Shown here in pieces: positions 39,489 to 58,817 of a stretch of DNA of 59,828 nucleotides (the first letter of the stretch is position 1; the number at the start of each line of letters is the position of its first letter). The stretch comes from an uncultured Thermoflexus sp. Lineage in GTDB: Bacteria; Chloroflexota; UBA11872; UBA12225. A model generated the notes under the pieces. It saw nothing but the letters and a program-made list of their open reading frames with translations. It did not search any database and was not told the DNA's origin. Both the position numbers and the translations under genes were made by a program. The DNA lies in the NCBI GenBank assembly GCA_964343985.1, contig CAYFLJ010000002.1, forward strand, positions 1 to 59,828, written 5' to 3'.

Positions 39489-39607
39489 GCCCTCGGGCAG
39501 CACCTCGGTGACGCGGTCGTGCGGAGATGTGACCCACTCCCAATCCCAAACCGCAAGCCTTGCCCGCTTCGGTGAAATCGGGAAGACAGGAAGGACAGAG
39601 ACGATCG

Positions 39608-40681
39608 ATGATCATCAAGATGGTGCCCGGCGCGAGCGACGCACAGGTCGACGCCGTCGAAGAGCGCATTCGCCATGAGGGCTACGAGCCCCGGACGATC
39701 CGAGGCGTCGGCATGTCGGTGATTGCCGTTGTCGGAAAGCGGCCCGAATACCTCATCGACAAGATCCTCTCGATGTCTGGGGTTGATCAATGCATTCCGA
39801 TCGAGAAGCCGTACAAGCTTGCGGCGCGCGACTTCCAGTCCGGTTGGACAGAAATCCCGATGGGAGAGGCGGTGCTTGGGAGCCAAGACATTACGATCAT
39901 GGCGGGGCCGTGCACCGTGGAGACGCGGGAGCAACTTCTGACGACGGCGCGAGGGGTGAAGGCGCACGGTGCCCACGTGCTGCGCGGTGGTGCGTTCAAG
40001 CCTCGGTCGTCGCCGTACGCGTTCCAGGGCCTTGGCGAAGACGGACTGAAACTCCTTGACGAAGCGCGCGCGCTGTCGGGACTCCCGATCATCACGGAAG
40101 TGATGGAGCCGGGGACGGTCGACGTCGTGCAACGGTACGCCGACGTTCTCCAAATTGGTGCACGAAACTGTCAGAACTACCCGCTTCTCCGGGAGGTTGG
40201 CAAGGCGCGCAAGCCGGTCATGCTGAAACGAGGGCCAAGTGTCACGATTGACGAGTGGATCATGGCGGCTGAATATGTGTTGCATGGTGGAAACATGCAG
40301 GTTATGATGTGTGAGCGTGGCATAAAAACATTTGAAAACTACACTCGCAATACTCTCGACTTATCTGCAATTCCCGCAATCAAGCGCCTGACACACCTTC
40401 CAGTGATTGTTGACCCGAGTCACGGCACAGGCAAATGGCACCTGGTTCGCTCGATGTGTCTGGCGTCGGTGGCGGCCGGTGCCGACGGCGTTCTCATCGA
40501 AGTCCACCCAACGCCGGATACGGCGCTGTGCGACGGCGCGCAATCGTTGACGATTGAGAATTTCGCTACGGCTGCATCAGACATTGCTCGCGTCGCGGTC
40601 GCAGTTGGCAGACGCGTACCGGGCTTTGAGGCCGACGGCACCTTTGTCGGCAGCGGTACGTACACGGCGGTCGCCGGCTGA
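39608..40681 (+). CDS. 3-deoxy-7-phosphoheptulonate (DAHP) synthase, type I-beta with an N-terminal ACT/ferredoxin-like regulatory domain
   Basis: MIIKMVPGASDAQVDAVEERI.. is a Thermotoga-type regulatory domain, followed by the catalytic core ..IMAGPCTVE..LRGGAFKPRSSPYAFQGLG..VDPSHG. Confidence 0.9.
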   Translation: MIIKMVPGASDAQVDAVEERIRHEGYEPRTIRGVGMSVIAVVGKRPEYLIDKILSMSGVDQCIPIEKPYKLAARDFQSGWTEIPMGEAVLGSQDITIMAGPCTVETREQLLTTARGVKAHGAHVLRGGAFKPRSSPYAFQGLGEDGLKLLDEARALSGLPIITEVMEPGTVDVVQRYADVLQIGARNCQNYPLLREVGKARKPVMLKRGPSVTIDEWIMAAEYVLHGGNMQVMMCERGIKTFENYTRNTLDLSAIPAIKRLTHLPVIVDPSHGTGKWHLVRSMCLASVAAGADGVLIEVHPTPDTALCDGAQSLTIENFATAASDIARVAVAVGRRVPGFEADGTFVGSGTYTAVAG

Positions 40682-42099
40682 TGTCATCGCCGAACAGCGC
40701 TCCCCCCACTGCGCTTTCGGCGGGGGCGCGCGCCGTGCGCGCAGTCGGGCGCGTGTCAGGCTCGGTCGAAGTTCCGGGCGATAAGAGCATTACGCATCGG
40801 GCGGTGATGTTCAACGCCCTAGCGGACGGAGTCGCAACTGTTCGGGGCGCCGGTCTCGGTGGGGACTGCCTGTCAACCGCTGACGCCATGCGCGCGTTGG
40901 GCGCGCAGGTCCAGCGATGCTGGCCCACGGGTGCACTCACCGACGATTTGCGTCGAGATCCTGAGACCGGGGCGGACGTACGGGAGGATGCAGTTCTCAT
41001 CGTTCGCGGCGCCGGTGAGTCCGGCTTGTCCGAACCCGTCGACGTGATCGACGCCGGGAACTCAGGGACGACCGCGCGCTTGCTGTCTGGAGTGTTGGCG
41101 GCGCAACCGTTCTTTTCGGTCTTGACGGGGGACGAGAGCCTCCGGTCGCGTCCGATGGGGCGGGTGATCACCCCGCTTCGTTCGATGGGGGCGCGGATTG
41201 AGGCGCGTGCGCGCGGTTCTCTCTTACCGCTCGCCGTTGCGCCTGCCGCGTTGCGAGGCATTCGGTATCAACTACCCGTCGCAAGCGCGCAACTCAAGTC
41301 GGCCCTGATCTTGGCCGGTGTATTTGCAGACGGGGAAACCGTGATCGAGTCGCCAGAGGCGTCTCGCGATCACACTGAGAGACTGCTTGCGGCACAAGGA
41401 GTGGACGTCACGACGGACGGTTCTGGCCTAGCGGTTTGTGTTCGCCCAACAGGTCGGGCATTGAAAGCGGTAGATGTCACGGTTCCGGGGGATATCTCGA
41501 GCGCGGCGTTTTGGTTAGTGGCGGCGTGCATCCATCCTAATGCGCGGGTCACAGTGCGAAACGTCGGCGTTAACCCGTCGCGTACTGGGATCATTGACGC
41601 ATTGCGGGCCATGGGTGCGACGATTGCGGTTGCGAATGAGCGGTCTATTGGTGGTGAACCGGTGGCTGATCTCACGGCCTCGTCAGCCCGTCTGCGCGGG
41701 ATTGGCATTGGCGGCGCCATCGTGCCGAGGCTCGTCGACGAACTGCCGATCCTTGCGATCGCCGCTGCGGTTGCGGAAGGGGCGACGACCGTGTCCGACG
41801 CGGCGGAGTTGCGCGTGAAGGAGAGTGACCGGATCGCGACGGTCGCGAAAGGCCTGGAGGCGTTGGGAGTTCGTGTAACAGAGCGGCCCGACGGCATGAT
41901 CATTGCTGGCAGTGGTCAAATTGGCGGTGGTGAAGTCTCAAGCCACGGCGATCATCGGATCGCCATGGCGTTCGCAATCGGTGGCCTTGTGGCCTCGACA
42001 GCGGTGACGATTGAGGGGGCCGCCGCGGTTGGGATTTCGTACCCAGCGTTCTGGCCGACCCTTGCCCAGATTGCGCCGGGGTCTTTGCGTGAACACTGA
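40681..42099 (+). CDS. aroA: 3-phosphoshikimate 1-carboxyvinyltransferase (EPSP synthase)
   Basis: VPGDKSITHRAVMFNALA.. and a TGATG overlap with the upstream stop. Confidence 0.92.
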   Translation: MSSPNSAPPTALSAGARAVRAVGRVSGSVEVPGDKSITHRAVMFNALADGVATVRGAGLGGDCLSTADAMRALGAQVQRCWPTGALTDDLRRDPETGADVREDAVLIVRGAGESGLSEPVDVIDAGNSGTTARLLSGVLAAQPFFSVLTGDESLRSRPMGRVITPLRSMGARIEARARGSLLPLAVAPAALRGIRYQLPVASAQLKSALILAGVFADGETVIESPEASRDHTERLLAAQGVDVTTDGSGLAVCVRPTGRALKAVDVTVPGDISSAAFWLVAACIHPNARVTVRNVGVNPSRTGIIDALRAMGATIAVANERSIGGEPVADLTASSARLRGIGIGGAIVPRLVDELPILAIAAAVAEGATTVSDAAELRVKESDRIATVAKGLEALGVRVTERPDGMIIAGSGQIGGGEVSSHGDHRIAMAFAIGGLVASTAVTIEGAAAVGISYPAFWPTLAQIAPGSLREH

Positions 42100-42988
42100 A
42101 GCCGTTTCGGCGCACCTCGCTCGGCGGGCTGCCGTGATTGGCTGGCCCCTCGGGCACTCCATCTCCCCAGCGTTCCAACAAGCTGCTTTCGACGCGGTGG
42201 GTCTGCCGGTGACCTATCGAGCGGTGCCGGTGGCTCCCGACGGACTTGAGGCTTTCGTCGCGAGCCTCAAGCACCCGACTGATAACGGGCCAGAATGGCT
42301 CGGTGTCAATGTCACGATTCCGCACAAACAAGCGGTCGCGAACCTAGTGGACGATGTCACCGAAGAGGCCCAGCAAATTGGCGCGGTCAACACGGTGATT
42401 TGCACCAACGGGCGGCTGATCGGGCACAACACTGATGCCATCGGCTTTCTGCGGGCGATGTTAGACCGTGACATCGACCCGGTCGGCATGAGCGCAATCG
42501 TGCTTGGTGCCGGCGGGGCAGCGCGTGCGGTTGCCGTCGGGCTACTTCGGCACGGGGTTACCGAACTTGCCATTGCAAATCGTTCGCCCGAACGGGCCGA
42601 ATCGCTGTGTTGGACCTTGCAGGACAAGTTTCCCCGAGTAGCAGTGAAGCCGCTCCCGCTCGACGCTGGAGTTCTCCGCACGAGGCTTGCGAAAGCGACG
42701 TTGTTGGTAAACACAACGAGTGTGGGGATGCGTGGTGGGCCGGACCCAGACGGTTCTCCCGTTCCCGTCGATGCGCTTTCTGAACGACACATTGTCTATG
42801 ACCTTGTGTACAACCCGCAGATTACCCCGCTGTTGGCAGGCGCATTGGCTGTACGTGCATCCGTCGTTGAAGGTCTGCCAATGCTTGTGCATCAAGGGGC
42901 CGCGAGTTTTGCGCAGTGGACGGCGGTAAATCCGCCGCTCGACGTGATGTTTGCCGCGGCGCGCCGAGCGATTGGACTTGTCTCGTGA
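42089..42988 (+). CDS. aroE: shikimate dehydrogenase
   Basis: VIGWPLGHSISPAFQQAAF and GAGGAARAV. The GTG start overlaps the aroA end by 11 nt. The longer ORF-track start at 42011 lies inside aroA. Confidence 0.88.
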   Translation: MNTEAVSAHLARRAAVIGWPLGHSISPAFQQAAFDAVGLPVTYRAVPVAPDGLEAFVASLKHPTDNGPEWLGVNVTIPHKQAVANLVDDVTEEAQQIGAVNTVICTNGRLIGHNTDAIGFLRAMLDRDIDPVGMSAIVLGAGGAARAVAVGLLRHGVTELAIANRSPERAESLCWTLQDKFPRVAVKPLPLDAGVLRTRLAKATLLVNTTSVGMRGGPDPDGSPVPVDALSERHIVYDLVYNPQITPLLAGALAVRASVVEGLPMLVHQGAASFAQWTAVNPPLDVMFAAARRAIGLVS

Positions 42989-43324
42989 CGGGTCGCGCGC
43001 AGGGGTAGCATCCTTCGAACCGTGCCTTGTGCCGACGTCAATCCGATTGCTATCGCACTCCGGTCGTCACCGCTGAAATGCCCCTCCGCCGAGTTCGACG
43101 GACCTCGACCCACCATTCAGACGGGATGGGTCGGGCGCGCGGCGGGTCGGGAAGCCTTCGGCCCAGTCTCGGAACTTCCATGGCTTTGAGAGACACGATA
43201 AGCGCCATCGAAGTGCTACCGGAGATTGCAACCGGAAAGGTCGTGATTGAACCGTGGTGGTTGGTGTTTCTCGGCCATTCGCACTGGCTACCCTTTGCGT
43301 CGTAGAGGCAAGGCGATCATAGTC

Positions 43325-44470
43325 ATGGGAAACACCACCGGCTCCATCTTTCGGGTGACGACATGGGGCGAGAGCCACGGTAGAGCGATCGGTGCAGTCA
43401 TCGACGGGTGCCCACCGCTCTTGCCCCTGACTGAGGCCGACATCCAACCAGACCTTGACCGTCGTGCGCCGGGCCAATCCGCAATCGTGACGCAACGCAA
43501 GGAGACCGACACCGTCCAGATTCTTTCCGGAACGTTTGACGGTGTCACCCTTGGAACCCCGATCAGCCTCTTGATCCCAAATGAGGACCAACGCAGCAAC
43601 GACTATCGGGACGTCGAGCGGAAGTATCGACCGTCACATGCTGACTTCACCTACGACGCCAAATACGGAACGCGTGATTATCGGGGTGGTGGGCGAACGT
43701 CGGCTCGTGAGACGGCGGCTCGGGTCGGTGCGGGTGCGATTGCTCGAAAACTCCTCGCACGTGCCTACGGCGTCGAGATCGTGGCGTGGGTGGCTGCGGT
43801 GCGCGACATCGCCGGGGACGCAGACCCCGCGACTGTCACCCGAGAGGCGGTTGATCAGACCATTGTTCGCTGCCCCGACCTTGATGCGGCGGCCCGCATG
43901 GTTGACGCAATTCAGGCGGCACGCAAGGACGGCGACTCGCTCGGTGGCGTGGTTGGGTGTGTGGTCCGAGGGTGCCCTGCCGGTTGGGGTGCGCCAGTTT
44001 TTGATCGTTTGGAGGCGGACCTTGCGGGGGCGATGTTGAGCCTGCCAGCGACCAAGGGGTTTGAGATTGGTTCAGGTTTCGCCGGATCGCAGATGACCGG
44101 GTTAGCACATAACGATCTGTTTTATATGGACGCCGGTCGCGTGCGGACGCGCACGAATCGAAGTGGAGGGGTTCAAGGGGGGATCACTAACGGCGAAGCG
44201 GTTGAGTTTCGGGTCGCATTCAAACCGGTTGCGACCGTCATGCGCGAGCAAGCGACTGTCACTCGGGATGGCGTGGATGCGACGATTGCGGGCAGAGGCC
44301 GCCACGATCCGTGCGTCCTGCCACGAGCCGTCGCTCTCGTCGAAGCGATGGCGGCGTTGGTCTTCGCCGACCATGCACTTCGTCACGCGGCCGTCGCCCC
44401 GCTCGAGGTGACGGAAACGACGTCATCTGGCTGGGGATGGGGGCGGTTCCCCGACGGCGGCGACCAATGA
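43325..44470 (+). CDS. aroC: chorismate synthase
   Basis: [19 protein letters not shown].., [14 protein letters not shown]. Confidence 0.93.
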
Positions 44471-45096
44471 ATTACCACCACGTCATTCTCGTTGGCCTGT
44501 CGGGCAGTGGTAAGTCGACGATTGGGCCGCGACTAGCTCGTCGGCTTGATCTCCTTTTTGTCGACACCGATCGGAGCGTTGTCGCGCGTGCTGGTAAGCC
44601 GATCGAGGAGATTTTTGCAACCGCGGGAGAATCAACGTTCCGGGCGTTTGAACGCGAGGCGGTGCGCGAGGCGGTAGCTGGGCCACGGGCGGTCATATCA
44701 ACGGGAGCTGGTGCGCCGATCGACCACACGAACCGAGCGTTGCTGTGGGAGGAGAATGTCGTTGTTTGGCTTGATGCCCCGCTTGAGGTGCTTGTGACGC
44801 GCCTCGGGCGGTCAGACCGTCCCGGACGCGAGCGGCGACCGCTTCTCAACGGCGATGCCGCGGCTCGTCTACCCGCGCTGCTTGATGCGCGTCGGCCGAT
44901 TTACGAGACCGCGCACGTCCGCGTAGGCACAGGGACTGCGCGTCCGGACGTCGTGGTCTCGGACATTCTGCGTCGGATTAATCCGCAGCCAACACCGACG
45001 AGGCGAAGCGCTGCGCGCGACGCCACCCTTCGCGGTGGGAATGTCCTTCCATTGACCCATCGGGTGGTGCCGGACGGAGAGGACAACGGTTCGTGA
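44467..45096 (+). CDS. aroK: shikimate kinase
   Basis: [15 protein letters not shown]-loop and an ATGA overlap with the aroC stop. Confidence 0.88.
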
Positions 45097-46199
45097 GGAT
45101 CGATTACCTGCCGCCGCCGCCGGTAGTGCATGATGCCCCGGAACATTCCACACGATTGCGCTTCGGAAACGGCATCGTCGAAGGCCTGGGGCACGAGATT
45201 CGCGCGTTGGGCCTCGCCGGGAGAGCCTTCGTCGTGGCGGATGAAGCGGTGGCCCGGTCGCACGGAGTGGCCGTGGAGGCGTCTCTCGCGACTGCCGGGC
45301 TGCGACCAGTCGTCACGACCTTCGCGTCTGGTGAGGGATCGAAATCGCTTGAGACCGCGAGTGCGCTGTACGCGTGGTTGGCATCGCATCGCGCCGAACG
45401 ACGCGATTGCATTGTGGCGGTAGGCGGCGGTGTCGCGGGGGATCTGGCAGGTTTCGTTGCGGCGACCTGGTTGCGGGGGGTGCCGCTAATTCAGGTTCCG
45501 ACGACTGTGCTTTCGATGGTTGACAGTTCGGTAGGCGGGAAGACGGCGGTCAACCTGCCTTCCGGCAAAAACCTTGTTGGCGCCTTTCACCCGCCTGTGC
45601 TGACGTTCCTCGACGTACAGATGATTCGTGACCTTCCACATCGCGAGATTCGAGCCGGTTGGGCGGAGGTGATCAAGACGGCGGCGATATTCGATCCACG
45701 ACTGTTCACTGATTTGGAGGGGCGTGACCCCACCACGATTGACAAGGACGAGTTGGCACGCATTCTCGAAATCGTTGTCCGGTGGAAGGAGCGGACTGTC
45801 GTCTCGGACCCTCGAGAGCGGGGCGTCCGCGTCGTCCTGAACTTTGGTCATACGATTGGGCACGCGTTGGAAGCAACGGCAGGGTACGGATCGTTCTTGC
45901 ACGGTGAGGCCGTTGCCGTCGGCATGATCGTGGCATCACGGTTGAGCGTTCGTGACGCCGGGCTTGACCCAGAGATTTGTACGCGACTTGAGCGCGCAAT
46001 CGAGGCATCGGGATTACCGGTGCGGCTTCGGGCGGGTTCCCCGAGCGTAGACACGATTCTCTACCAGACGGGCGTTGACAAAAAAGTTGAAGCGGGGCGT
46101 GTACGGTGGGTGCTGCTCAGCGACCTCGGTCGCGTTGTCGTGACCGATGAGATTGATCCGGGTGTCGTACGCACCGTTCTGGACGAGATTTGCCACTGA
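45093..46199 (+). CDS. aroB: 3-dehydroquinate synthase
   Basis: GGGVAGDLAGFVAATWLRGVPLIQVPTTVLSMVDSSVGGKTAVN and a GTGA overlap with the aroK stop. Confidence 0.92.
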   Translation: MRIDYLPPPPVVHDAPEHSTRLRFGNGIVEGLGHEIRALGLAGRAFVVADEAVARSHGVAVEASLATAGLRPVVTTFASGEGSKSLETASALYAWLASHRAERRDCIVAVGGGVAGDLAGFVAATWLRGVPLIQVPTTVLSMVDSSVGGKTAVNLPSGKNLVGAFHPPVLTFLDVQMIRDLPHREIRAGWAEVIKTAAIFDPRLFTDLEGRDPTTIDKDELARILEIVVRWKERTVVSDPRERGVRVVLNFGHTIGHALEATAGYGSFLHGEAVAVGMIVASRLSVRDAGLDPEICTRLERAIEASGLPVRLRAGSPSVDTILYQTGVDKKVEAGRVRWVLLSDLGRVVVTDEIDPGVVRTVLDEICH

Positions 46200-46269
46200 G
46201 CGGCTTGGGTTCAGCGCTTGACGGGTTCGCTCGCCATGGCTACCTTTTTCTGAAACATGGGGGTCGATA

Positions 46270-47019
46270 ATGGTTGCAGCGCTTCCTGGTATTCGCATCG
46301 GCGCGACGTTGTCCATGGAGGCCGATGATCCGGCCCTCGGCGCAGACTCGTACAAGTGCCGCATTGAGGACTTCAAAGATGAGCGGCTGTGGCTAACGTG
46401 GCCCGCGAAACGAGGCCAAGCCGTAAAGCTGCAACTTGACGATTCTGTGTCGTTGGCACTGGCGCAGACCGCACCAAATGGGCAACCTGAAGCAACGCTG
46501 TATCTCGACTGCATTGTGGTCGACCGCTTGGTGCCGACCCCGCAGAACCCCGTCCCGCAGGTGGTTGTGCGTGTGGTTGCGGCTGGGCGCCAAGCCCCGC
46601 GCGGGTCGTACCGTCTCCCCGTGCACATGCCGCTGACCGACGTCGCGGTGAAGGTGTCGTCGTATGGGACGACTACGTGGAAACCAGTCGCGGCGTTTAT
46701 TCACGACATCAGCGCTGGCGGTCTCGGGATCACTTCAGACGAAGAGGTTGCGCAGGGTCTAAAAATGCGTGTGCGATTCCCTGTACCAGCGGGTTCTGGT
46801 GAAATGTCCGTCACCGTTGAGGTCATGAATGTGACTGATGTGTCACCGGGTGAACGGCTTTCAAAATACAAGCTGGGTGTGAAGTTTGACGACGCTACAC
46901 AGCAGCAGCGAGAGAGAATGGCGCGTGCAATTCATAGGGCGCAACTAGAGAACCGTCGTCGCGATCAAATCGCAGGCAAGATTGACCGGAGTGACGAACC
47001 GGAGGCACCAGCGACGTAG
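46270..47019 (+). CDS. PilZ-domain c-di-GMP receptor with a YcgR-like N-terminal domain
   Basis: RQAPRGSYR (RxxxR) and DISAGGLGI (DxSxxG) are PilZ motifs in the C-terminal half. The N-terminal half resembles PilZN. Confidence 0.75.
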   Translation: MVAALPGIRIGATLSMEADDPALGADSYKCRIEDFKDERLWLTWPAKRGQAVKLQLDDSVSLALAQTAPNGQPEATLYLDCIVVDRLVPTPQNPVPQVVVRVVAAGRQAPRGSYRLPVHMPLTDVAVKVSSYGTTTWKPVAAFIHDISAGGLGITSDEEVAQGLKMRVRFPVPAGSGEMSVTVEVMNVTDVSPGERLSKYKLGVKFDDATQQQRERMARAIHRAQLENRRRDQIAGKIDRSDEPEAPAT

Positions 47020-47074
47020 GTCGCGCTATGCTTTTTTCGTAGGTTCCGCAGCGGACGTGCTTGGAGAGTGACCA

Positions 47075-47299
47075 ATGGCGAAAAAACCACAGATGGTGTC
47101 CCTCGAAGACTTCGGGAAGCCACCGCCACCCCCGGCCAAGGCGCCATTTCCAATCTTCGCGTACTCGGTGCTGACCGTAATCGTGCTTGTCATCTTCGTT
47201 GGCGGGTGGTTCGCTTACAACTGGATGGACGCTCGTGCCATGGCCTTCTGGGGCAAGTCTGCCGAAATCGCGGACGCAGGACGTTTCGCGACGAAATAG
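47075..47299 (+). CDS. small single-TM protein, paralog 1 of 3 (74 aa)
   Basis: GGAGAG SD. The layout MVSLEDFGKPPPPP, then a TM segment, then FWGKSAEIADAGRFATK is shared with the two downstream ORFs. Confidence 0.75.
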   Translation: MAKKPQMVSLEDFGKPPPPPAKAPFPIFAYSVLTVIVLVIFVGGWFAYNWMDARAMAFWGKSAEIADAGRFATK

Positions 47300-47323
47300 G
47301 CAACGTGGACTAAACGCTTGGTG

Positions 47324-47385
47324 CCCTGATGTGTGTGGCGTCTTTCGGACCAATCATGTTCTTCTCAGGACATTCCCTGATGTGT
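47324..47385 (+). repeat. 11-nt direct repeat CCCTGATGTGT (47324..47334 and 47375..47385) in the spacer between paralogs 1 and 2
   Basis: Exact repeat read from the sequence. Confidence 0.5.
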
Positions 47386-47449
47386 TGAGCTCGGATAGGG
47401 CGCATCGTTGAGGCAGGTTCCAGGCCACTTGTGGCCGGGGAGGTCTCCG

Positions 47450-47674
47450 ATGCGCACCAGACCGCACATGGTTTCGCTTGAGGATTTTGGTAGGGCCCCG
47501 AAACCCGTTCCCCCGGCCCCCATCGATTGGCGGGCATATGTAATCTTAGTGCTCGTCGTCGGCACGATTATCGGTGGTGGATGGCTTAGCTGGGACACTG
47601 TGACCAATCGCGCGCTTGCGTATTGGTCGAAGTCGGCGGAACTTGCCGACCAAGGGCGGTTTAACACGCGTTAG
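47450..47674 (+). CDS. small single-TM protein, paralog 2 of 3 (74 aa)
   Basis: GGGGAGG SD upstream of the ATG at 47450. MVSLEDFGRAPKPVPP, then a TM segment, then YWSKSAELADQGRFNTR. The ORF-track TTG start at 47408 is not supported by the paralog alignment. Confidence 0.75.
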   Translation: MRTRPHMVSLEDFGRAPKPVPPAPIDWRAYVILVLVVGTIIGGGWLSWDTVTNRALAYWSKSAELADQGRFNTR

Positions 47675-47780
47675 CAGGTTGGCATCTATGGCCTTTTGGC
47701 CTCGCGAGTGGTGCCACCTGCTTAGATTGGTGTCGCTCGTGACACATCCGTTGCACGGCCTGATTCGAGCGCAGCGCGTG

Positions 47781-47808
47781 TTGAAAATGGCCTCTCCGTT
47801 GGTAGAAT
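47781..47808 (+). promoter_or_regulatory. sigma-70-like promoter for paralog 3
   Basis: TTGAAA, a 16-nt spacer, then TAGAAT. It lies about 40 nt upstream of the AAGGAGAA SD and ATG. Confidence 0.55.
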
Positions 47809-47847
47809 TTGCATGTCACTTGACTGCAACTACTCAAGGAGAAGCCA

Positions 47848-48069
47848 ATGCGACGCCCGACAATGGTGAAGCTCGAAGATTTTGGCAAGCCCCCGCCGCC
47901 TCCCCCGCCGCGCCCCTTTGACGTGCGTTCACACGTGACGTTCGCGGCGATTGTTGTGGGCATCTTTCTCCTAGGTTCTGCCGGCTGGGATTGGGCGACA
48001 GAGCAGGCGAGCTCCTACTGGTCTCGCAGTGCGGAAATCGCTGATCAAGGGCGCTTCGGCACGCGGTAA
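47848..48069 (+). CDS. small single-TM protein, paralog 3 of 3 (73 aa)
   Basis: AAGGAGAA SD. MVKLEDFGKPPPPPPP, then a TM segment, then YWSRSAEIADQGRFGTR. Confidence 0.78.
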   Translation: MRRPTMVKLEDFGKPPPPPPPRPFDVRSHVTFAAIVVGIFLLGSAGWDWATEQASSYWSRSAEIADQGRFGTR

Positions 48070-48157
48070 GCGCCATGTCCTAGTGCTCGCACGTGCACCC
48101 GCTTGGCGTGACTTGAGGAGGACGATCGATGTAGTCGTGGCCGGTACAATCCGGGTG

Positions 48158-49021
48158 ATGACGGCATCTTTACCTTCCGAACCGGTACGCCTCGGCCAAG
48201 TTCTTGAAGACTTCAGACCGAGCGCGCCTCCAGAGGCATTTCCGCGAATTCGCCGGTTCGTGACCTTTGTTGGCGCTACTTCGGCACTCGAATCGGTGCA
48301 GGCCTTCAAAATTGAAGAATTTTTGAAGCTCCAAGTATCAACGTCGACACCTCCGCGTTTATATATGGAGGCGCTGAAAGCGTACTTTGCGTTTGCGCAG
48401 AAGGCTGGTCACATAACCGCCGACCCCATGAAGAACGTGCGGTTGCCGCGAGCAACCGGAATCGCCGCGACCGCCGCGCGCCGCACCGCCGCAGCCTCAA
48501 CAAATTCGTCTGCGACGCCGGTTACACCGGTGGCATCGCGCGCCGTTGAGGTGGAGTACGTCACGCGCGCCCGTCAACAAGAAATGGTCGCGGAGCTTGA
48601 TCGCTTAAAGGTTGATGAGCGGCAGCGGATAAGTGCGTTGCTTGAGGAAGCGATCAAGGACGGCGACCTCTCCGAAAATGCGGGCTACGACGATGCCAAA
48701 ATGCGCCAAGGGCTACTCGAAGCACGCATTCGCGAGCTGGAGGATAAGTTGCGCAGGGCGGCGTTGATTGAAGATCAAGACGTTGACGTTGCGACCGTCG
48801 GCGTTGGCAGCCGAGTGACGCTGCGGGATCTTCAGGATGACGAGGATGTGGAATACACCCTCGTTGGGCCGGAAGAGACTGACCCTGCGCGGTTCCGAAT
48901 ATCTCATCGGTCGCCCGTTGGCAAGGCTTTGCTCGGCAAACGTCAAGGCGAAGAAGCCGACGTTTCGACGCCGAGCGGGACGCATCGGTACCGAATCGTC
49001 TCCGTTGAACGCGACTCGTAG
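48158..49021 (+). CDS. GreA-family transcript cleavage/elongation factor fused to an N-terminal integrase-SAM-like (core-binding-like) domain
   Basis: The C-terminal half has a GreA coiled coil (GDLSENAGYDDAK) and a globular domain (ISHRSPVGKALLGK). In the N-terminal half, SxxTPPRLYMEALKAYFAFAQKAGHITADPMKNVRLPR resembles the phage-integrase N-terminal SAM-like fold. TACAAT lies 7 nt upstream of the ATG. Confidence 0.75.
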   Translation: MTASLPSEPVRLGQVLEDFRPSAPPEAFPRIRRFVTFVGATSALESVQAFKIEEFLKLQVSTSTPPRLYMEALKAYFAFAQKAGHITADPMKNVRLPRATGIAATAARRTAAASTNSSATPVTPVASRAVEVEYVTRARQQEMVAELDRLKVDERQRISALLEEAIKDGDLSENAGYDDAKMRQGLLEARIRELEDKLRRAALIEDQDVDVATVGVGSRVTLRDLQDDEDVEYTLVGPEETDPARFRISHRSPVGKALLGKRQGEEADVSTPSGTHRYRIVSVERDS

Positions 49022-49071
49022 ACTGGTTGCGGCGGCACGTTCGTCCGCCGTCCTCCGTTGATCTTGCGACG

Positions 49072-49614
49072 ATGCCAGCGATCAGCACAGCAGTTCAGGT
49101 GGTCGTGGCGTTTGGAGGTGCCTACCTCGTCGCTCTTTGGTTCAGCATGATTGTCTGGACCTATTACGACATTCGAGCTCGCTCACAAGACATTTACGTC
49201 CACATATTCGCGACGGCACTCGTTCTGGTCTTCAACGTTTTTGGGCTGCTTCTGTATTTCATTCTTCGTCCTCGCGAAACGTTGGCCGAGGCGTACGAGA
49301 GGTCACTTGAGGAGGAGAGCCTCCTGCAAGAGCTTGAAGATCGTCCACATTGTCCGAGCTGCAGACAGCGTGTGAGTCCGGACTTCATGGTCTGCCCGAG
49401 TTGCCACGTGATCTTGAAGAACCGATGCGTCTCGCCGTCGTGCGCGCGCTTGGTGAACCCGCGCTGGGAACTCTGCCCGTTTTGCGGGACGCTTCAAGTT
49501 GGCGACTTGGGCATCGATGACAGCGATGCGCCACACGGATCCAACGTGCCGATTGTCCCGATAAGCGTATTCGGGCCGGACACGACCAGTTCGAGCGGCA
49601 CTGGCACGGTCTAA
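49072..49614 (+). CDS. membrane protein with a PLD-N-like TM region and a double zinc ribbon
   Basis: WFSMIVWTYYDI..LLLYFILRP TM pair, then CPSC..CPSC and CVSPSC..CPFC. The ORF opens at a TTG at 49027; the ATG at 49072 is preferred. Confidence 0.65.
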   Translation: MPAISTAVQVVVAFGGAYLVALWFSMIVWTYYDIRARSQDIYVHIFATALVLVFNVFGLLLYFILRPRETLAEAYERSLEEESLLQELEDRPHCPSCRQRVSPDFMVCPSCHVILKNRCVSPSCARLVNPRWELCPFCGTLQVGDLGIDDSDAPHGSNVPIVPISVFGPDTTSSSGTGTV

Positions 49615-49619
49615 CTGGC

Positions 49620-50315
49620 GTGGCTAAGCCGTCGCCGTTGGTGCTTGCGTCGCGCTCGCCTCGACGTCAAGACGCAATGAAGGCACTTGGTTTGGCTTTT
49701 GACGTCGCGGTGTCGGACGTGGAACTCACGCTTCCTCCCGGCGAAGACCCCTGTGACCCAGTACCTGTTGCCGTCGCGAAAGTGGTCGACGTGGCACGGA
49801 CCGCCTCGAACTCTGCGCAGGTGCTAGGCGCAGACACAATCGTGGTGGACGGAACCAGACCAATTGGCAAACCGGTCGATGCCGAAGATGCGGTCACGAT
49901 GCTCATGGGATTACGAGGGCGAACCCATCGAGTCCGCACCGGTGTGGCACTCTACGAGCGCGGCCGCTTGGTCACGTTCGAGGTCGCGTCTCCCGTTCAG
50001 ATGAGGGACTACGACCGCGACGTCGTCGAGCGGTACGTCGCGACCGGCCAAGCGCTCGACTGTGCCGGTAGCTACGACGCCCGAAGCGCCGGCGAGCTGC
50101 TCATCGCTGGCATCGACGGCTGCATGTCTGCGGTTATCGGCTTTCCTGTGGGTGCGGTGGTAAGGGTCTTGCGCCATGAGACCGGACACACGGGATTGAC
50201 GGACGCCATTCCGGCGTGTGAGGTGCTCTGCGGTACGCCGTGCCGAGCACGCAACGCGGCGACGGCAAAAGCCTGCGACGCGTCGCGCTTCACGAGGCGC
50301 ACTTTTTTTGCGTAG
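49620..50315 (+). CDS. maf: Maf-family nucleoside triphosphate pyrophosphatase
   Basis: LVLASRSPRRQDAMKALGL and ..GADTIVV..GKP.. are typical Maf motifs. Confidence 0.85.
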   Translation: MAKPSPLVLASRSPRRQDAMKALGLAFDVAVSDVELTLPPGEDPCDPVPVAVAKVVDVARTASNSAQVLGADTIVVDGTRPIGKPVDAEDAVTMLMGLRGRTHRVRTGVALYERGRLVTFEVASPVQMRDYDRDVVERYVATGQALDCAGSYDARSAGELLIAGIDGCMSAVIGFPVGAVVRVLRHETGHTGLTDAIPACEVLCGTPCRARNAATAKACDASRFTRRTFFA

Positions 50316-50353: not shown

Positions 50354-51169
50354 TCAGGTGGTCAAGGGCGACGTGCCATCCGCGGCGACGCGTAACTCCC
50401 CTGCGAACTCACGCAGCGCCGTGGCACGGTCGCCCGGGTTCACGCGGTCCATGCGATCAATGATGGCGCTGGCGATGATGGCGGCGTCGGCGACGCCACG
50501 GAGGCTGGCGACGTGCTCTGGGCGCGAGACGCCGAAGCCAACAGCCAACGGCATGTCGGTGAACGTGCGAACGCGAGCAAGGTACGCCGGCAAATCTTCG
50601 GGTAGCGACTGACGAGCTCCAGTGACACCGGTCAAGCTGACGCAGTACACAAAACCTCGCGCACGGGATGCAATCGCGCGCATTCGTGTATCTGGAGTTG
50701 TTGGCGCGACCAGAAAAATGACGTCAATTCCAACCGGATCAAGGGCAGCGATTAGGTCGTCTGACTCCTCGGCAGGCAAGTCGGGAACAATAAGGCCGTC
50801 GACGCCTGCCTCGCGCGCGTCAGTGGCGAAGCGATCCAGCCCGCGCGAAAGGATCGGGTTGTAGTAACTCATAAAAATGAGCGGAGCAGCGACACCGTCA
50901 GAGCGAAGCGTTCGCACGCAGTCGAGGGCGACTTGCAGACTCGCCCCTTGGCGAAGCGCTTCGAATGACGCACGTTGGATCGTGGCGCCGTCGGCTTGAG
51001 GATCGGAAAACGGGACGCCGAGTTCGATGAGGTCGAAGCCACCGTCGATGAGTGCCGTCACTAAGGTGCGCGACTCTTCGACCGTTGGGTAGCCAATCGT
51101 CTGCCACCCGATGAGTGCGATCGTTCCTGCTTCGCGGTGGCGCGCCAGGGTTGCGCTGATCCGAGACAT
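50354..51169 (-). CDS. trpA: tryptophan synthase alpha chain
   Basis: DLIELGVPFSDPQADGATIQ. Confidence 0.93.
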   Translation of the reverse strand: MSRISATLARHREAGTIALIGWQTIGYPTVEESRTLVTALIDGGFDLIELGVPFSDPQADGATIQRASFEALRQGASLQVALDCVRTLRSDGVAAPLIFMSYYNPILSRGLDRFATDAREAGVDGLIVPDLPAEESDDLIAALDPVGIDVIFLVAPTTPDTRMRAIASRARGFVYCVSLTGVTGARQSLPEDLPAYLARVRTFTDMPLAVGFGVSRPEHVASLRGVADAAIIASAIIDRMDRVNPGDRATALREFAGELRVAADGTSPLTT

Positions 51170-52377
51170 TACAGAGTGACCCCAAGCCGGGTCGCGACGG
51201 TATTCAGGTCCTTGTCACCACGGCCGGAGCAGTTGACGACGACGGCTTCGGTCGACGGCCGGGTCGCGGCGTACTCGGCGGCGTATGCGACAGCGTGCGC
51301 GGTCTCAAGTGCAGGAATAATCCCCTCGGACCGGCAGAGGAGCTCGAAACCGGTCATCGCCGCAGAGTCGTCGACGGCGACATACGTTGCGCGCCCGCTG
51401 TCCTTGTACCAAGCGTGTTCTGGGCCGACGCCCGGGTAGTCAAGGCCTGCAGACACGCTATGAGTCTCGACAACTTGCCCGTCTTCGTCCTGCATCAGGT
51501 ATGAAAGTGCTCCATGCAGGACGCCGGGGCGACCGGCGGACAAGGGCGCGGCGTGGCGCCCAGTTGCGACTCCGTCACCGCCGGCTTCGACGCCGATCAG
51601 ACGGACGGACAGATCATCGTGGAATGGGTGAAAGATCCCCATCGCGTTTGAACCGCCCCCAACGCACGCGATGACTGCGTCCGGACATCTCCCAATCTGT
51701 TCGATTGACTGTGCGCGCGTCTCGCGCCCAATCACACTTTGGAAGTCTCGCACCATGATTGGGTACGGGTGAGGACCGACCACGGACCCGATGATGTAGA
51801 AGGTGTCCTTGACATTCGTTACCCAGTCGCGGATGGCCTCATTAATTGCGTCCTTGAGTGTGCGCGACCCTGACCGGACGGGGCGCACCTCCGCCCCGAG
51901 CAGTTTCATCCGGAAGACGTTTGGGGCTTGTCGGTGGATGTCCTCTTCGCCCATGTAGACAATGCACTCAAGGCCAAGCATCGCGCAGGTTGTTGCCGTT
52001 GCGACGCCGTGTTGGCCGGCACCGGTCTCGGCGATGATCCTGCGTTTCCCCATACGACGCGCCAGAAGCCCTTGACCAAGAGCATTGTTGATCTTGTGCG
52101 CTCCAGTGTGCGCCAAGTCTTCGCGCTTGAAATACAACTGCGCGCCGCCAATTTGTTGGCTCAACTTCGCTGCATGATAGAGCGGAGTGGGGCGCCCGAT
52201 AAAGTCGCGTGCGAGGCTGTCGTACATCGCGGTGAACGACGGGTCGTGCCTGACTTCGTCGTACGCCGCAATGAGTTCGGCAAGCGCCGGCATGAGCGTT
52301 TCAGGTACGAACTGCCCTCCATATGGCCCGAAACGCCCCGGGCGCGTGGTACTCGTCGTCACGGTGCTAATCGCCAT
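51169..52377 (-). CDS. trpB: tryptophan synthase beta chain (canonical TrpB1)
   Basis: [16 protein letters not shown] and HTGAHKINN. The start is at the ATG (MAISTV) preceded by AAGGAA. Confidence 0.93.
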
Positions 52378-52457
52378 GTGCGTTCCTTGTCTTGACTTGA
52401 GCGGCGAATACCGCAGTGCACTCCCGTCGCGGGCCGGCGCGCGGCGCAACCCGGGGA

Positions 52458-53468
52458 TTAGCGCAAACCCATCGCCGTCGCGACCCGCTCTAGTGTGCGG
52501 TTGGCAATCGCGCTTGCACGATTCGCACCGTCTAGAAGGATGTCGTCAAGGTCGTGGCCTTCAATGAGTGATCGACACCGCGCTTGAATTGGCGCAAGGG
52601 TGTCGAGGACGGCGGTCGCGACCTCCTTCTTCAGGTCACCGTAGCCGCGTCCACCAAAATGGGCCTCAATCGCGTCACGCTCAAGACCGGTCAGTACTTG
52701 GTAGATGGTTAGGAGATTGTTGACGCCCGGTCTCGCTGGGTCGAAAACGATGGTGCGCTCGCTATCTGTCGTGGCGCGCATGAGCGCTTTGCGGATGTTC
52801 GACGGGTCGTCGAAAATGCCAATTGCTTGGCCGGGCAGGTCGTCGGACTTGCTCATCTTCTTGGTTGGGTCCACCAAACCCATGATTCGCGCACCCGTCT
52901 CGGCGATGAGCGGTTGTGGCACGACGAGGATGTCCGTGCCGTTGCCGTAGAGACGGTTCACTCTCTCTGCGATGTCCCTTGTGAGTTCCACGTGTTGCTT
53001 TTGATCATCGCCGACTGGCACGAAGTTCGCATCGTACAGAAGAATGTCTGAGGCCATGAGGACGGGGTAGTCGAAGAGACCGGTGCTTATCCGTTCGCGG
53101 TTTTCGCCCTCTTTTGCTGCCTTGTCTTTGAACTGGGTCATCCGTTCAAGCCAACCCATCGGGGTAACGCAATTCAGGATCCAACCGAGTTCCGCGTGTG
53201 CAGAGACGTGACTTTGCACGAAGACGATGGTCCGCGCCGGGTCGAGTCCCGCTGCCAAATAGAACGCGGCGACCTCACGCGTCTGTTGCCGAAGGGCGAC
53301 GGGGTCCTGAGGAACAGTGATCGCGTGGAGATCGACGATGCAAAAGACATTTTCGTAGCGATCTTGATCATCGACCCACCGTTTGATGGCGCCAAGGTAG
53401 TTGCCGAGATGAAGTCCCCCGCTTGGCTTCACGCCTGAAAACGTTTTGGGACGGGTGCCGACTGACAT
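52458..53468 (-). CDS. trpS: tryptophan--tRNA ligase
   Basis: A HIGH-like [11 protein letters not shown] motif, KMSKS, and a length typical of bacterial TrpRS. Confidence 0.93.
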
Positions 53469-53492
53469 AGTGGTCAGGTTCCTCTCACAAAC

Positions 53493-54353
53493 TTACGGCT
53501 GCGCTGCCGAGTACACAGCTGCCTCGACGCGTGGCGCACCGGAGAATGGCTGAACCTCCGAGTTGAGTGGCGCTCGTGCCGCGGAGATGAAAGCCCGAAC
53601 ACAATCGGGGTCGGTCGTTCCATCGCGCTCCACGCCGCTCGCCACGTCCGCACCCCACGCGCCCGACGAGTCGAGTGCCTGACGAACGTTTTCACGGCGC
53701 AGGCCGCCCGCGATGAGTGCGGGAACACCACGTGCCGTTGTCGCGTCGACGACGTACCGTGCCATTCGATGGTCCCACGGTAGGCCCGCGCCCCCCACGG
53801 CGCCCGGTGCATCAATCAAGATGGCAACGACGCCCCGCACCCCGGCTAACGATTGGGCAAGCGCGGCCATGGTGTCGACGGCCTCGCTGAGGCGTATCAC
53901 GGCGACAACTGGCAACTTTGAGGCCTCGTAAACCGCTTGGCATACGTTCGGCGTACATTCACCGCTCAGTTGGATGGCGTCGAGTCCGGCGTTTGATGCG
54001 ATTTCGGCAATCTGTAGGACCGACTGTTCAACGAAGATGCCTACGACCCACGGTCGCGGGTTACGGAAAATAGGCGTTTCTGGCAGGGGTACCCTCGCAA
54101 CACGAAGTACTGGCACATCGGATCCAGCGGTGGTTGCCGGTTCCACTACAGTGTGATCTGGTGATCCGTCGGACCCAATGGACACTTCACGAACGGCGCG
54201 CACAATGGATCGAGCCTGATCAGGGGAGATCCGTCGCTTGCTGATCCGCGCAAAGTTCACGCCGATAAGGTCGGCGCCCGCGTGTATGACCTCCTTCGCA
54301 ATCTCAGGAGTTCGTACACCGCAGACCTTCACGATTGGCGTCTCGAAGTTCAC
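53493..54353 (-). CDS. trpF: phosphoribosylanthranilate isomerase (unusually long, 286 aa)
   Basis: VKVCGVRTPEIAKEVIHAGADLIGVNFA.. and the trp operon position. Confidence 0.85.
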   Translation of the reverse strand: MNFETPIVKVCGVRTPEIAKEVIHAGADLIGVNFARISKRRISPDQARSIVRAVREVSIGSDGSPDHTVVEPATTAGSDVPVLRVARVPLPETPIFRNPRPWVVGIFVEQSVLQIAEIASNAGLDAIQLSGECTPNVCQAVYEASKLPVVAVIRLSEAVDTMAALAQSLAGVRGVVAILIDAPGAVGGAGLPWDHRMARYVVDATTARGVPALIAGGLRRENVRQALDSSGAWGADVASGVERDGTTDPDCVRAFISAARAPLNSEVQPFSGAPRVEAAVYSAAQP

Positions 54354-55225
54354 AGGAGGATGACTCCCGCCATCTCTCGAGCTTTTGACGAGGGGTCGCC
54401 AGAGCGAACAAGCGCTTCACCGACGAGGACGGCGTGCGCACCAGCTTGCCGGACGCGCAGAACGTCGGTCGCGTTCCGCAATCCGCTCTCACTGACCATG
54501 ATCGGTTGGTACTCAAGTGCGCTATGGATGCTGCTCATCACCGCCTCAGTGGTGTGGAGCGAGGTCTCGAAGGTGGTCAGGTTTCGGTTGTTCACGCCGA
54601 TGATCGGCGCCCTGACCGAGACGGCGACCGCCGCTTCGGATTCATCGTGGACCTCGACGAGGGTTTCCAAACCTGCCTTGCGTGCGACAGCCATCAACCG
54701 AATAAGCCGTTCGCGTGCCATCGCGAGATCGGGCGTGCCGGCCGTGTGGAGCACATCGAGGTTGTGCGGGTCGCCAAGCGGTGAGGCGAGCGCAGCGACG
54801 ATGAGCAATACAGCGTCGGCCCCTGCCGCGCGTGCTTCCCAAATCTGGTAGTCGGTGATCAAGAAATCTTTACGCAGGACAGGGACAGTCACGGCATCAT
54901 GTACCGCCTGAAGGTCGTCGAGGCTCCCGCCAAAGTTGGGGAAGTCGGTGAGCACCGAGATGGCGGCCGCGCCACTCGAGACGTACATCTGCGCGAGGTT
55001 CACCGGGTCGAAAATCTCTGCCAACGTGCCGACTGAGGGCGATTTGCGCTTGATCTCGGCGATGAGCCGGGTTGGCTCGCCGGGCCTAGCGCGTAACCGT
55101 GATGCGAACGACCGGGCAGGCGGGCGGACGAACGCGCGCGCTTTGACGGCATCGATCGGAAGCGTGCGCATGGCATCCGCAACCTCACGGCGTTTGCCGA
55201 CAAGGATTTCATCGAGGATGGTCAT
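54350..55225 (-). CDS. trpC: indole-3-glycerol phosphate synthase
   Basis: ILDEILVGKRREV, IAEIKRKSPS, and a 4-nt overlap with trpF. Confidence 0.92.
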   Translation of the reverse strand: MTILDEILVGKRREVADAMRTLPIDAVKARAFVRPPARSFASRLRARPGEPTRLIAEIKRKSPSVGTLAEIFDPVNLAQMYVSSGAAAISVLTDFPNFGGSLDDLQAVHDAVTVPVLRKDFLITDYQIWEARAAGADAVLLIVAALASPLGDPHNLDVLHTAGTPDLAMARERLIRLMAVARKAGLETLVEVHDESEAAVAVSVRAPIIGVNNRNLTTFETSLHTTEAVMSSIHSALEYQPIMVSESGLRNATDVLRVRQAGAHAVLVGEALVRSGDPSSKAREMAGVILL

Positions 55226-55451
55226 GAGTCCGTTCCTTCAACCGATCTCGCTTGAAATCGCTGTGCGGGGGATCTACCCAAACGTGCCTCCGCGCACACC
55301 GAATTGGTTGTGCCAGTGCGCTGAGGGTTGATCGGGAGCGGAGCAACTCTCAAGGCCACCGCCGGTGCCGTTGCGCGCTGGAGGGGGTGTACCTTCGACG
55401 AACGCGTTGCCTGAAACAATTGGCCGCGGTCAGTCGCGACGTGGGTACGGT

Positions 55452-56480
55452 TCACGCCACGGCCTGACTGACGCGGACCAGCGTGTCTAGACGGGCGAGA
55501 GCGGCCCCTGATCGAAGAGCTTCACGCGCATGGTGGACGCCATCGGACAAGTCGCGAGCGACACCCGACGCAACCAGGGCAGCGGCGGCGTTGACGCACG
55601 CGATGTCGCGCCGTGCGTCAGCCTCGGGGCTATCGTCGGTTTCGGCAAGGAGGGCGCGCATCATTCGCGCGTTTTCGGCCGCGGTCCCGCCTGCAATTGA
55701 CACTGCCGGGTACTGGTCGACCCCGACGTCTTGCGGGTTAACCTGATACGCAAGACGGGCGCCTGAGGAAACCTCGTGGATATCGGTCGGACCAGACAAA
55801 CTGATTTCGTCTAGGCCGCCGGCACCGTGAACAACAAGCGCGCGCTCGGCACCCAGATGACTGAATGCGCCAGCGACGATCGGCAGGAAGCGTGGTGAGG
55901 GCACACCAACAACTTGTCGCCGCGCTCCGGCGGGGTTTGTTAGCGGTCCAAGAATGTTGAAAACGGTACGAATCGCGACTTCTCGACGTAACGGGGCGGC
56001 GAACCGCATGGCTGGGTGGAAGGACGGCGCAAACATGAAACCGATGCGTGCTTCATCGATGCATCGTGATACAGCGTCGGGGGAGAGGATGATCGAGACT
56101 CCCAGTGCCTCAAGTACGTCGGCGGAGCCACTCTTGCTGGTCATGCCCCGATTACCGTGCTTCGCGACCGGGACCCCGGCCCCGGCGACGATGAAGGCGG
56201 CGGCGGTTGACACGTTGAAGCTACCACTACCGTCGCCGCCGGTGCCGCACGTGTCAACAACCGGAAGATCCGTTGGGACGCGAAGAACTTTTTCGCGCAT
56301 GGTTCGAGCCATGCCCGCAACCTCGTCAGCGGTCTCACCTTTCATGCGCAGAGCCGTGACGAAGGCGCCGAACTGCGCCGGGGTCGCCCGATCTTCCATG
56401 ATGTCTGACATGGCGTCAGCCGCTTGGTCGATCGTGAGTGTTTGGCCTTCGACGAGTGCTTGGATGGCTTCGATAATCAT
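55452..56480 (-). CDS. trpD: anthranilate phosphoribosyltransferase
   Basis: DTCGTGGDGSGSFNVSTAAAFIVAGAGVPVAKHGNR. Confidence 0.93.
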   Translation of the reverse strand: MIIEAIQALVEGQTLTIDQAADAMSDIMEDRATPAQFGAFVTALRMKGETADEVAGMARTMREKVLRVPTDLPVVDTCGTGGDGSGSFNVSTAAAFIVAGAGVPVAKHGNRGMTSKSGSADVLEALGVSIILSPDAVSRCIDEARIGFMFAPSFHPAMRFAAPLRREVAIRTVFNILGPLTNPAGARRQVVGVPSPRFLPIVAGAFSHLGAERALVVHGAGGLDEISLSGPTDIHEVSSGARLAYQVNPQDVGVDQYPAVSIAGGTAAENARMMRALLAETDDSPEADARRDIACVNAAAALVASGVARDLSDGVHHAREALRSGAALARLDTLVRVSQAVA

Positions 56481-57190
56481 CGTGGGTAATTCCGATCACC
56501 CTCTTTGTGCACAGCCTCATCCAGTCTCCCCCGTTGACGCTTGACTGGGTCGCTCGTCGTGCTGACGCTACGCGGCGGAGACGACGGCACCGTGCCCAGT
56601 GGTCGGTTGGTTGCGTTCCACTCCGAAGCGAAGCCAAGAAAGTTTTTCAAGAGGGCTTTCCCGCCATCCGTTTTGATCGACTCTGGGTGAAACTGAACGC
56701 CTTCGATCGGGTAAGTGCGGTGTCGCAACCCCATGACGAGTCCGGCGTCGGTCCATGCGGTGACCTCAAGCTCGGCGGGCATATCTTCGCGGCGAACGAT
56801 GAGCGAGTGGTAGCGAATTGCGTCGAATGGTCGAGGCATACCGACGAAAACCCCCGTACCGGTGTGGTGGATCTTCGACGTTTTGCCGTGCACGATCTCA
56901 GGCGCACGCTCAACTGTGCCTCCGAAGGCCTCCCCTAAGCACTGATGCCCGAGGCAGACTCCGAGGGTGGGGTAAAACGGTGCAAGGGTTCGGATCACTT
57001 CGACCGAGATGCCGGCTTCACGTGGCGTACACGGCCCGGGCGAAACGACAATTGCGTCGGGACCCATTTCACGCACATCGTCGATTGCGATTGCGTCGTT
57101 CCGTCGCACTTCGACGGTTGCCCCGAGTTCGCCGAGGTACTGAACAAGATTCCACGTGAAGGAATCATAATTATCGATCATGAGAATCAT
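56477..57190 (-). CDS. trpG: anthranilate synthase component II (glutamine amidotransferase) with a roughly 45-aa C-terminal tail
   Basis: MILMIDNYDSFTWNLVQYLGELG, a GVCLGHQ catalytic Cys, and 4-nt overlaps with trpE and trpD. Confidence 0.92.
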   Translation of the reverse strand: MILMIDNYDSFTWNLVQYLGELGATVEVRRNDAIAIDDVREMGPDAIVVSPGPCTPREAGISVEVIRTLAPFYPTLGVCLGHQCLGEAFGGTVERAPEIVHGKTSKIHHTGTGVFVGMPRPFDAIRYHSLIVRREDMPAELEVTAWTDAGLVMGLRHRTYPIEGVQFHPESIKTDGGKALLKNFLGFASEWNATNRPLGTVPSSPPRSVSTTSDPVKRQRGRLDEAVHKEGDRNYPR

Positions 57191-58746: not shown

Positions 58747-58817
58747 CGCGCGACCCGGCGGGCGGGAAACGTCGGATACATCGGCGGCGGCATCCTCACT
58801 TCGGGCGTCAGTCAATT

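Follow-up and report, generated by a model that had tools for sequence, protein, structure and literature searches.

A stretch of 59,828 nucleotides from an uncultured Thermoflexus sp. (Chloroflexota; GenBank assembly GCA_964343985.1, contig CAYFLJ010000002.1), referred to below as the window, carries three consecutive small genes, A, B and C, between positions 47075 and 48069 of its forward strand. These very probably encode genuine single-pass membrane proteins, members of a new family that is tied to a block of genes for a PilZ protein and a GreA-family factor. Judging from sequence, the family is undescribed and narrowly distributed and has a strikingly conserved neighbourhood, and it is this invariant neighbourhood, rather than the triplication, that is the informative feature. 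The genes and their Shine-Dalgarno (SD) sequences are as follows.

47063-47068, forward strand: SD of A, GGAGAG.
47075-47299, forward strand: paralogue A, 74 residues, with MAKKPQMVSLEDFGKPPPPP, a transmembrane (TM) segment and then FWGKSAEIADAGRFATK; the universal, ancestral-type copy.
47437-47443, forward strand: SD of B, GGGGAGG.
47450-47674, forward strand: paralogue B, 74 residues counted from the ATG at 47450.
47836-47841, forward strand: SD of C, AAGGAG.
47848-48069, forward strand: paralogue C, 73 residues, containing a run of seven prolines.

A first-pass annotation of this DNA had described three forward-strand open reading frames (ORFs), each with a good SD and all of one architecture, separated by spacers of 150-175 nt. 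All three are present as described: each ATG is preceded by its SD at a distance of 6 nt, and the spacers measure 150 nt between A and B and 173 nt between B and C. For B, the ORF list extends the reading frame upstream to a TTG at 47408. The common N-terminus, (K/R)PxMV(S/K)LEDFG(K/R) followed by a proline run, leads into one hydrophobic helix and then into the common tail (F/Y)W(G/S)(K/R)SAE(I/L)AD(A/Q)GRFxT(K/R). B and C are 48-49% identical to A at the protein level, with 26 invariant columns in the three-way alignment. The proline run of B is interrupted (RAPKPVPP), and of the approximately 47 ORFs of the window, A and C alone contain runs of 5-7 prolines. The shared LEDFG block is encoded by different synonymous codons in the three copies, exactly as first stated. 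Likeness at the DNA level is restricted to the two motif blocks (61-78% identity); the duplication is an old one and not a DNA repeat.

The G+C content of the window is 61.6%, so that long spurious ORFs are common and independent evidence of coding is needed. The proportions of non-synonymous (pN) and synonymous (pS) differences were obtained from Nei-Gojobori (NG86) counts against the orthologues of a related species (locus L001). All three genes gave low pN and high pS values (A, 0.11 and 0.79; B, 0.15 and 0.72; C, 0.14 and 0.80), with synonymous sites saturated in these comparisons (pS 0.72-0.80). In less diverged, unsaturated orthologue pairs, the ratio of non-synonymous to synonymous substitution rates (dN/dS) was 0.05-0.14. 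Selection on the protein, which the first-pass annotation had proposed, is thus borne out by a substitution pattern between orthologues that is consistent with purifying selection, and A, B and C are real coding genes under strong constraint. This constraint is uneven along the proteins. It is strongest over the N-terminal 24 residues (pN 0.00-0.11 at pS 0.62-0.83 among A-type orthologues), intermediate in the tail and weakest in the TM segment, where pN reaches 0.72 and hydrophobicity alone is kept.

We obtained an AlphaFold2 (AF2) model of paralogue A from a 19-sequence alignment, with a predicted local distance difference test (pLDDT) score of 82.7. In the model, the N-terminus is extended and residues 27-72 form a single unbroken helix. 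A hydropathy scan is concordant with the single TM helix that had been proposed, detecting one TM segment per copy with Kyte-Doolittle values of 1.8-3.1 for the best 19-residue windows. With fewer than 100 residues and a single TM helix, the proteins fall within the class of small bitopic membrane adaptors or regulators. The net charge of the flanks is +1 to +2 on the N-terminal side and 0 to -2 on the C-terminal side, and distant family members carry Arg-rich N-terminal extensions or N-terminal zinc-ribbon fusions of cytoplasmic type. Because of these three features, the N-terminus is predicted to lie inside and the C-terminus outside.

We searched A, B and C against Pfam-A, NCBIfam, PHROGs, PADLOC and PDB sequences and found no match at the curated cut-off, in agreement with the initial failure to assign them to any family. 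The best sub-threshold profile match was EccD (E=0.0018; 17.7 bits against a cut-off of 30), confined to the TM segment, and a profile search of the PDB returned solely TM-biased matches with E values of at least 0.068. A profile search of 5.8 billion proteins identified 17 clusters, all of 68-74 residues and labelled 'hypothetical', the sole organism name supplied being a Chloroflexota metagenome-assembled genome (MAG). An exhaustive search of 1.84 billion representatives with a hidden Markov model (HMM) added about a dozen more distant members of 64-174 residues, which share RPxMVPL(S/E)(D/E)FGKPPPPPP(R)..NW, a TM segment and then ..IW.....LDxR. The family is therefore wider than the three copies, with a total of about 30 relatives or clusters, all from Chloroflexota MAGs or metagenomes and some merely 20-35% identical. 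The polyproline run is kept throughout, and two distant members (P0026 and P0030) carry an N-terminal zinc ribbon of the Zn_Ribbon_1/DZR type. Genome matches came from freshwater Chloroflexi MAGs of the La Plata, Baikal-deep, TH and CH sample series, and included 'Chloroflexi bacterium UBA2235', the namesake MAG of the proposed class UBA2235 (PMC10608941). The family is thus unannotated and confined to one lineage of Chloroflexota. A phage or defence origin was rejected, with no match in PHROGs or PADLOC and no relatives of the small proteins in the viral contigs searched.

The small genes lie within a block that comprises four other genes in the window.

46270-47019, forward strand: YcgR-like PilZN+PilZ protein (Pfam PilZ 2.8e-12, PilZNR 7e-6).
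48158-49021, forward strand: long GreA, 287 residues (approximately 285 in relatives; Pfam and NCBIfam GreA matches).
49027-49614, forward strand: membrane protein with a C-terminal double zinc ribbon (DZR; Pfam DZR 1.9e-6).
49620-50315, forward strand: Maf-like nucleotide pyrophosphatase, the last gene of the block (Pfam Maf 2.2e-43; synteny).

In every locus showing both flanks, the small gene or genes are located between an upstream PilZN+PilZ gene and a downstream long GreA gene, and contigs that reach further show the membrane DZR gene next, followed by Maf. PilZ adjoins the small gene in every locus reaching that far upstream. This order is retained as the identity of the PilZ protein to that of the window falls from 97% to 31%, and the zinc-ribbon-fused members hold the same position, with a gap of 18 nt between PilZ and the small gene in L027. 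The corresponding gap in the window is 55 nt. No copy of the small gene was found outside the PilZ-GreA block, either in the window or in the 30 loci. The gaps between PilZ and the small gene are short and contain no conserved promoter, which suggests that the small gene is co-transcribed with PilZ.

The PilZ protein of the window, a predicted receptor of cyclic di-GMP (c-di-GMP), has intact motifs for binding of this messenger, namely RxxxR (RQAPR) and DxSxxG (DISAGG). Between the window and L001 it is 97% identical, against 70% for aroB, 60% for Maf and 60-87% for the flanking housekeeping proteins; among close relatives, the PilZN-PilZ gene is by far the most constrained of the neighbourhood. 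At long range, the DZR protein is the best conserved of the block, with 67-73% identity where PilZ has 31-40% and GreA 44-52%. Its true start is probably the ATG at 49072.

The long GreA comprises an integrase-SAM-like N-terminal domain of about 100 residues (48158-48480), an Ala-rich linker and the GreA domains. Matches to the N-terminal domain are weak (Pfam Phage_int_SAM_5, E=0.28; PDB 5vfz, E=0.0018), and a word-indexed protein search with it returned one match only; the fusion is kept in all related loci. The start of greA is the ATG at 48158 (MTASLPSEPV...) and not the GTG at 48029 of the ORF list. A TACAAT box lies at 48145-48150, 7 nt before this ATG. Start and box are conserved across species (also in L001 and L012-L014), the box even inside an apparent upstream reading frame, and this arrangement suggests a leaderless greA mRNA. 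The spacer between C and greA also contains, at 48115-48134, a strong SD (GAGGAGG) followed by a start-stop mini-ORF (ATG TAG), which shows no conservation in L001 and probably arose by chance.

The entire block, from PilZ to Maf, is wedged between two convergent operons, and the same arrangement is found in relatives as far as their contigs reach.

39560-46199, forward strand: complete shikimate-pathway operon (DAHP synthase, aroA, aroE, aroC, aroK, aroB).
50354-58815, reverse strand: trp operon (trpE, G, D, C, F, then trpS, trpB, trpA), converging with the aro operon.

We determined copy numbers by a six-frame HMM search across all fetched loci. Three intact copies are present in the window and in L001-5 and L010 (one species), and two in L025. 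L029 and L030 have intact A and B together with a pseudogene of the third copy, and all remaining core-family loci, as well as every distant member with a readable contig, have one copy. Orthologues of A are intact in every related locus, those of B are found in L001-5, L010, L025, L029 and L030, and those of C are intact in L001-5 and L010. The integrity of the ORFs in relatives thus holds for A, B and C in other species but fails for C in L029 and L030, two related metagenomic species in which the pseudogene occupies positions 3390-3615 of each locus. The lesions differ. In L029, a deletion of 2 nt leads to a TGA within the LEDFG region and an insertion of 2 nt follows further downstream, while C of L030 has a GTG start, a lost SD, LEDFG changed to L*DFG and additional stops. 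In a neighbour-joining tree, the single-copy group is basal, followed by an A clade and one that unites B with C; the C sequences group with 98% bootstrap support and the deeper nodes are weak, as expected with 74 residues. In the single-copy locus L007, the 340-nt gap was searched for a remnant of a lost B and none was found. A single gene is the ancestral and commonest state, with two or three copies representing an expansion of one sub-lineage. The pattern is that of birth-and-death evolution, in which A is universal, B is younger, and C is the most recent and in some species already dispensable.

The first-pass annotation had also assigned a promoter to the third copy. This is the sole sigma-70-like match in the region 46200-48400, and it is followed by a conserved stretch of the 5' untranslated region (5'UTR); a second conserved island lies upstream of B.

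47404-47421, forward strand: conserved island upstream of B, CGCATCGTTRAGGCAGGT.
47781-47808, forward strand: sigma-70-like promoter of C, TTGAAA-16-TAGAAT, with a TG extension (extended -10).
47809-47831, forward strand: conserved island in the 5'UTR of C, TTTGCATGTCACTYGACTGCAAC.

L001 and L003 retain the -10 box of the C promoter and the adjoining 5'UTR, with the remaining spacer diverged; the -35 box is not conserved in L001. The assignment of a promoter to C is supported. Both islands stand out from spacers that have otherwise diverged. Neither island has an Rfam match, and structured RNA in the spacers was rejected, with no Rfam match at the gathering threshold or at E<=1. Two further elements surround the start of A. 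A terminator-like hairpin with a T-run directly follows the PilZ stop (47011-47039) and is not conserved in L001. A 14-nt inverted repeat (47026-47039/47079-47092) could enclose the SD and start of A; as it is likewise not conserved in L001, it was discarded as a candidate element.

The constraint profile and the neighbourhood are best explained, as a whole, by a membrane adaptor whose docking partner is a product of the block, an explanation that we adopt tentatively. The first 25 or so residues would lie in the cytoplasm, where the (K/R)PxMVxLEDFG peptide would be held off the membrane by a rigid polyproline stalk. This peptide, the most constrained part of the protein, would be a probable short docking motif. 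The TM helix may serve mainly as an anchor, given its tolerance of up to 72% non-synonymous difference, and a short outer helix (W..SAEIADxGRF) could provide a second contact under weaker constraint. The small protein would then recruit to the membrane, or sequester there, a soluble protein encoded in the block, and the paralogues would be alternative or additional anchor variants. Given the short gaps and the lack of a conserved promoter within them, the most likely partner would be the PilZ receptor encoded directly upstream, the alternatives being the DZR protein and the N-terminal domain of GreA. That the adaptor mechanism and the identity of the partner are both correct is doubtful.

Several points weigh against this explanation. 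The order of the genes, with the aro and trp operons on either side in all loci reaching that far, may have been kept for some cause other than a physical complex. Conserved promoters of their own precede C and greA, and the block therefore does not form one operon. The zinc-ribbon fusions point to the DZR protein as much as to PilZ. The predicted N-in/C-out topology draws solely on the charge bias, the Arg-rich extensions and the fusions, and the host organisms are uncultured.

A rather unlikely alternative is that the small proteins are free-standing envelope or membrane proteins, for example regulators of a complex encoded elsewhere, and that their position between PilZ and GreA is historical. 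Conservation of both ends, including the outside tail, and the independent transcription of C from its predicted promoter would fit such a role, and many small bitopic regulators act on unlinked partners. A historical position sits poorly, however, with a synteny that outlasts both divergence of PilZ to 31% and a domain fusion, and with the confinement of all copies to the block.

It is unlikely that the adaptor architecture is right but that the partner is the DZR protein or the SAM-like domain of GreA instead of PilZ, in which case a transcript-cleavage factor would be tethered to, or released from, the membrane. The fusion of a DZR-type ribbon to the N-terminus of distant members that keep their position in the block is a Rosetta-stone hint in this direction, although zinc ribbons are promiscuous and such a fusion is weak evidence. 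The long-range conservation of the DZR protein also fits. For GreA, the N-terminus contains a similar L(E/D)D(F/Y) string, but this drifts to RDEF in distant orthologues, the resemblance is insignificant (hhalign probability 0.24%, BLASTP E=0.049), and greA is served by a promoter of its own. On these two scores, and because the string LEDF..PP..FP..VTF is not conserved in distant GreA, the small proteins and the GreA N-terminus were rejected as homologues; the two share at most a short motif.

A more elaborate version of the adaptor, which we regard as distinctly unlikely, would turn the block into a c-di-GMP-responsive module that tethers a transcription factor to the membrane. The LEDFG-polyproline peptide would hold PilZ and/or the SAM-like domain of GreA, together with DZR, at the membrane, and c-di-GMP would control release, so that the availability of the transcript-cleavage factor would be gated by the level of the second messenger. 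The extra paralogues would tune the response in one freshwater lineage.

Polyproline runs imply synthesis that depends on elongation factor P (EF-P), and these proteins are likely EF-P clients. The genes might then be a translation-level device, acting as sensors, throttles or upstream ORFs of greA, with the protein itself secondary. The restriction of long proline runs to A and C within the window and the presence of the run family-wide agree with this, as does a reported link between c-di-GMP and EF-P control of polyproline proteins in Acinetobacter (PMC9564936). Such a device is nevertheless very unlikely, given that purifying selection includes the tail, TM hydrophobicity is kept over the whole length, greA has its own conserved -10 box and appears leaderless, and B is conserved despite the loss of an uninterrupted run. 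EF-P dependence is probably not the main function, because the remaining protein is under selection and the run of B is interrupted. Leader or arrest peptides (trp-type attenuators, SecM/MifM-type) were rejected on similar grounds, with selection over the whole length, a conserved tail and the -10 box of greA; in the small proteins the polyproline run precedes the TM helix. Trp-rich leaders serving the aro or trp operons were rejected on strand (trp is on the opposite one), length and whole-length selection.

Tandem type I toxin-like or other membrane-active peptides, as in the ldr/ibs/hok loci, which also have tandem small hydrophobic ORFs and individual promoters and which the spacers of about 150 nt and the promoter of at least one copy recall, are extremely unlikely, as the family is inherited vertically at one fixed chromosomal position amid housekeeping genes in all 30 loci, usually in single copy, with conserved polar ends of 25 residues, no minus-strand promoter-like site in 46200-48400 or other antisense signal, no Rfam match, no mobile-element association, and no relatives in viral contigs, PHROGs or PADLOC.

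Precursors of bacteriocins or of ribosomally synthesized and post-translationally modified peptides (RiPPs) were rejected in view of the neighbours (PilZ, GreA, DZR, Maf, aro/trp) and of the conservation of both ends, the variable part being the TM helix. Membrane anti-sigma factors of the zf-HC2/RskA type were also rejected, with no anti-sigma Pfam match and no sigma factor gene in the block at any locus.

Among known systems, the nearest in kind are MgrB, SafA and AcrZ, which are small bitopic membrane regulators. The proteins described here resemble them in having fewer than 100 residues, one TM helix, a lineage-restricted distribution and short conserved soluble ends that are presumed to touch a partner. 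There is no sequence relationship, and they would be functional analogues rather than homologues. They differ in that the most constrained part is a 25-residue LEDFG-polyproline head, predicted to be cytoplasmic, and in that the gene is locked into the PilZ/long-GreA/DZR block. Receptors of the YcgR/MotI type act by binding membrane-associated partners. They resemble the upstream neighbour, with its PilZN and PilZ domains and intact RxxxR and DxSxxG motifs, and not the small protein, and their known partners, MotA and FliG, are large flagellar proteins. Our search of the literature turned up no small bitopic partner of a PilZ protein, and searches on PilZ with GreA in Chloroflexi, PilZ with polyproline, and ypfA/ypfB found nothing relevant. 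Finally, the zinc-ribbon/Pro-rich-linker/TM proteins of Actinobacteria and Chloroflexota (PF13240/PF12773) have exactly the architecture of P0026 and P0030, and the second gene downstream of the small gene specifies a DZR membrane protein. The proteins of the window, in contrast, have no zinc ribbon, and their LEDFG-polyproline-TM-tail module is unmatched in Pfam.

The family is not very surprising in kind. It offers a compact case of gene birth and death, running from one, two and three copies to a pseudogene. If its association with the block is not functional, it is a well-supported example of small-protein genes that annotation pipelines miss or call 'hypothetical'. If the association is functional, it would link, for the first time, a small membrane partner to a PilZ receptor and a GreA-family factor, and the family would provide a handle on c-di-GMP signalling in abundant uncultured freshwater Chloroflexota. 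For work on c-di-GMP or GreA in these organisms, the family is a promising starting point.

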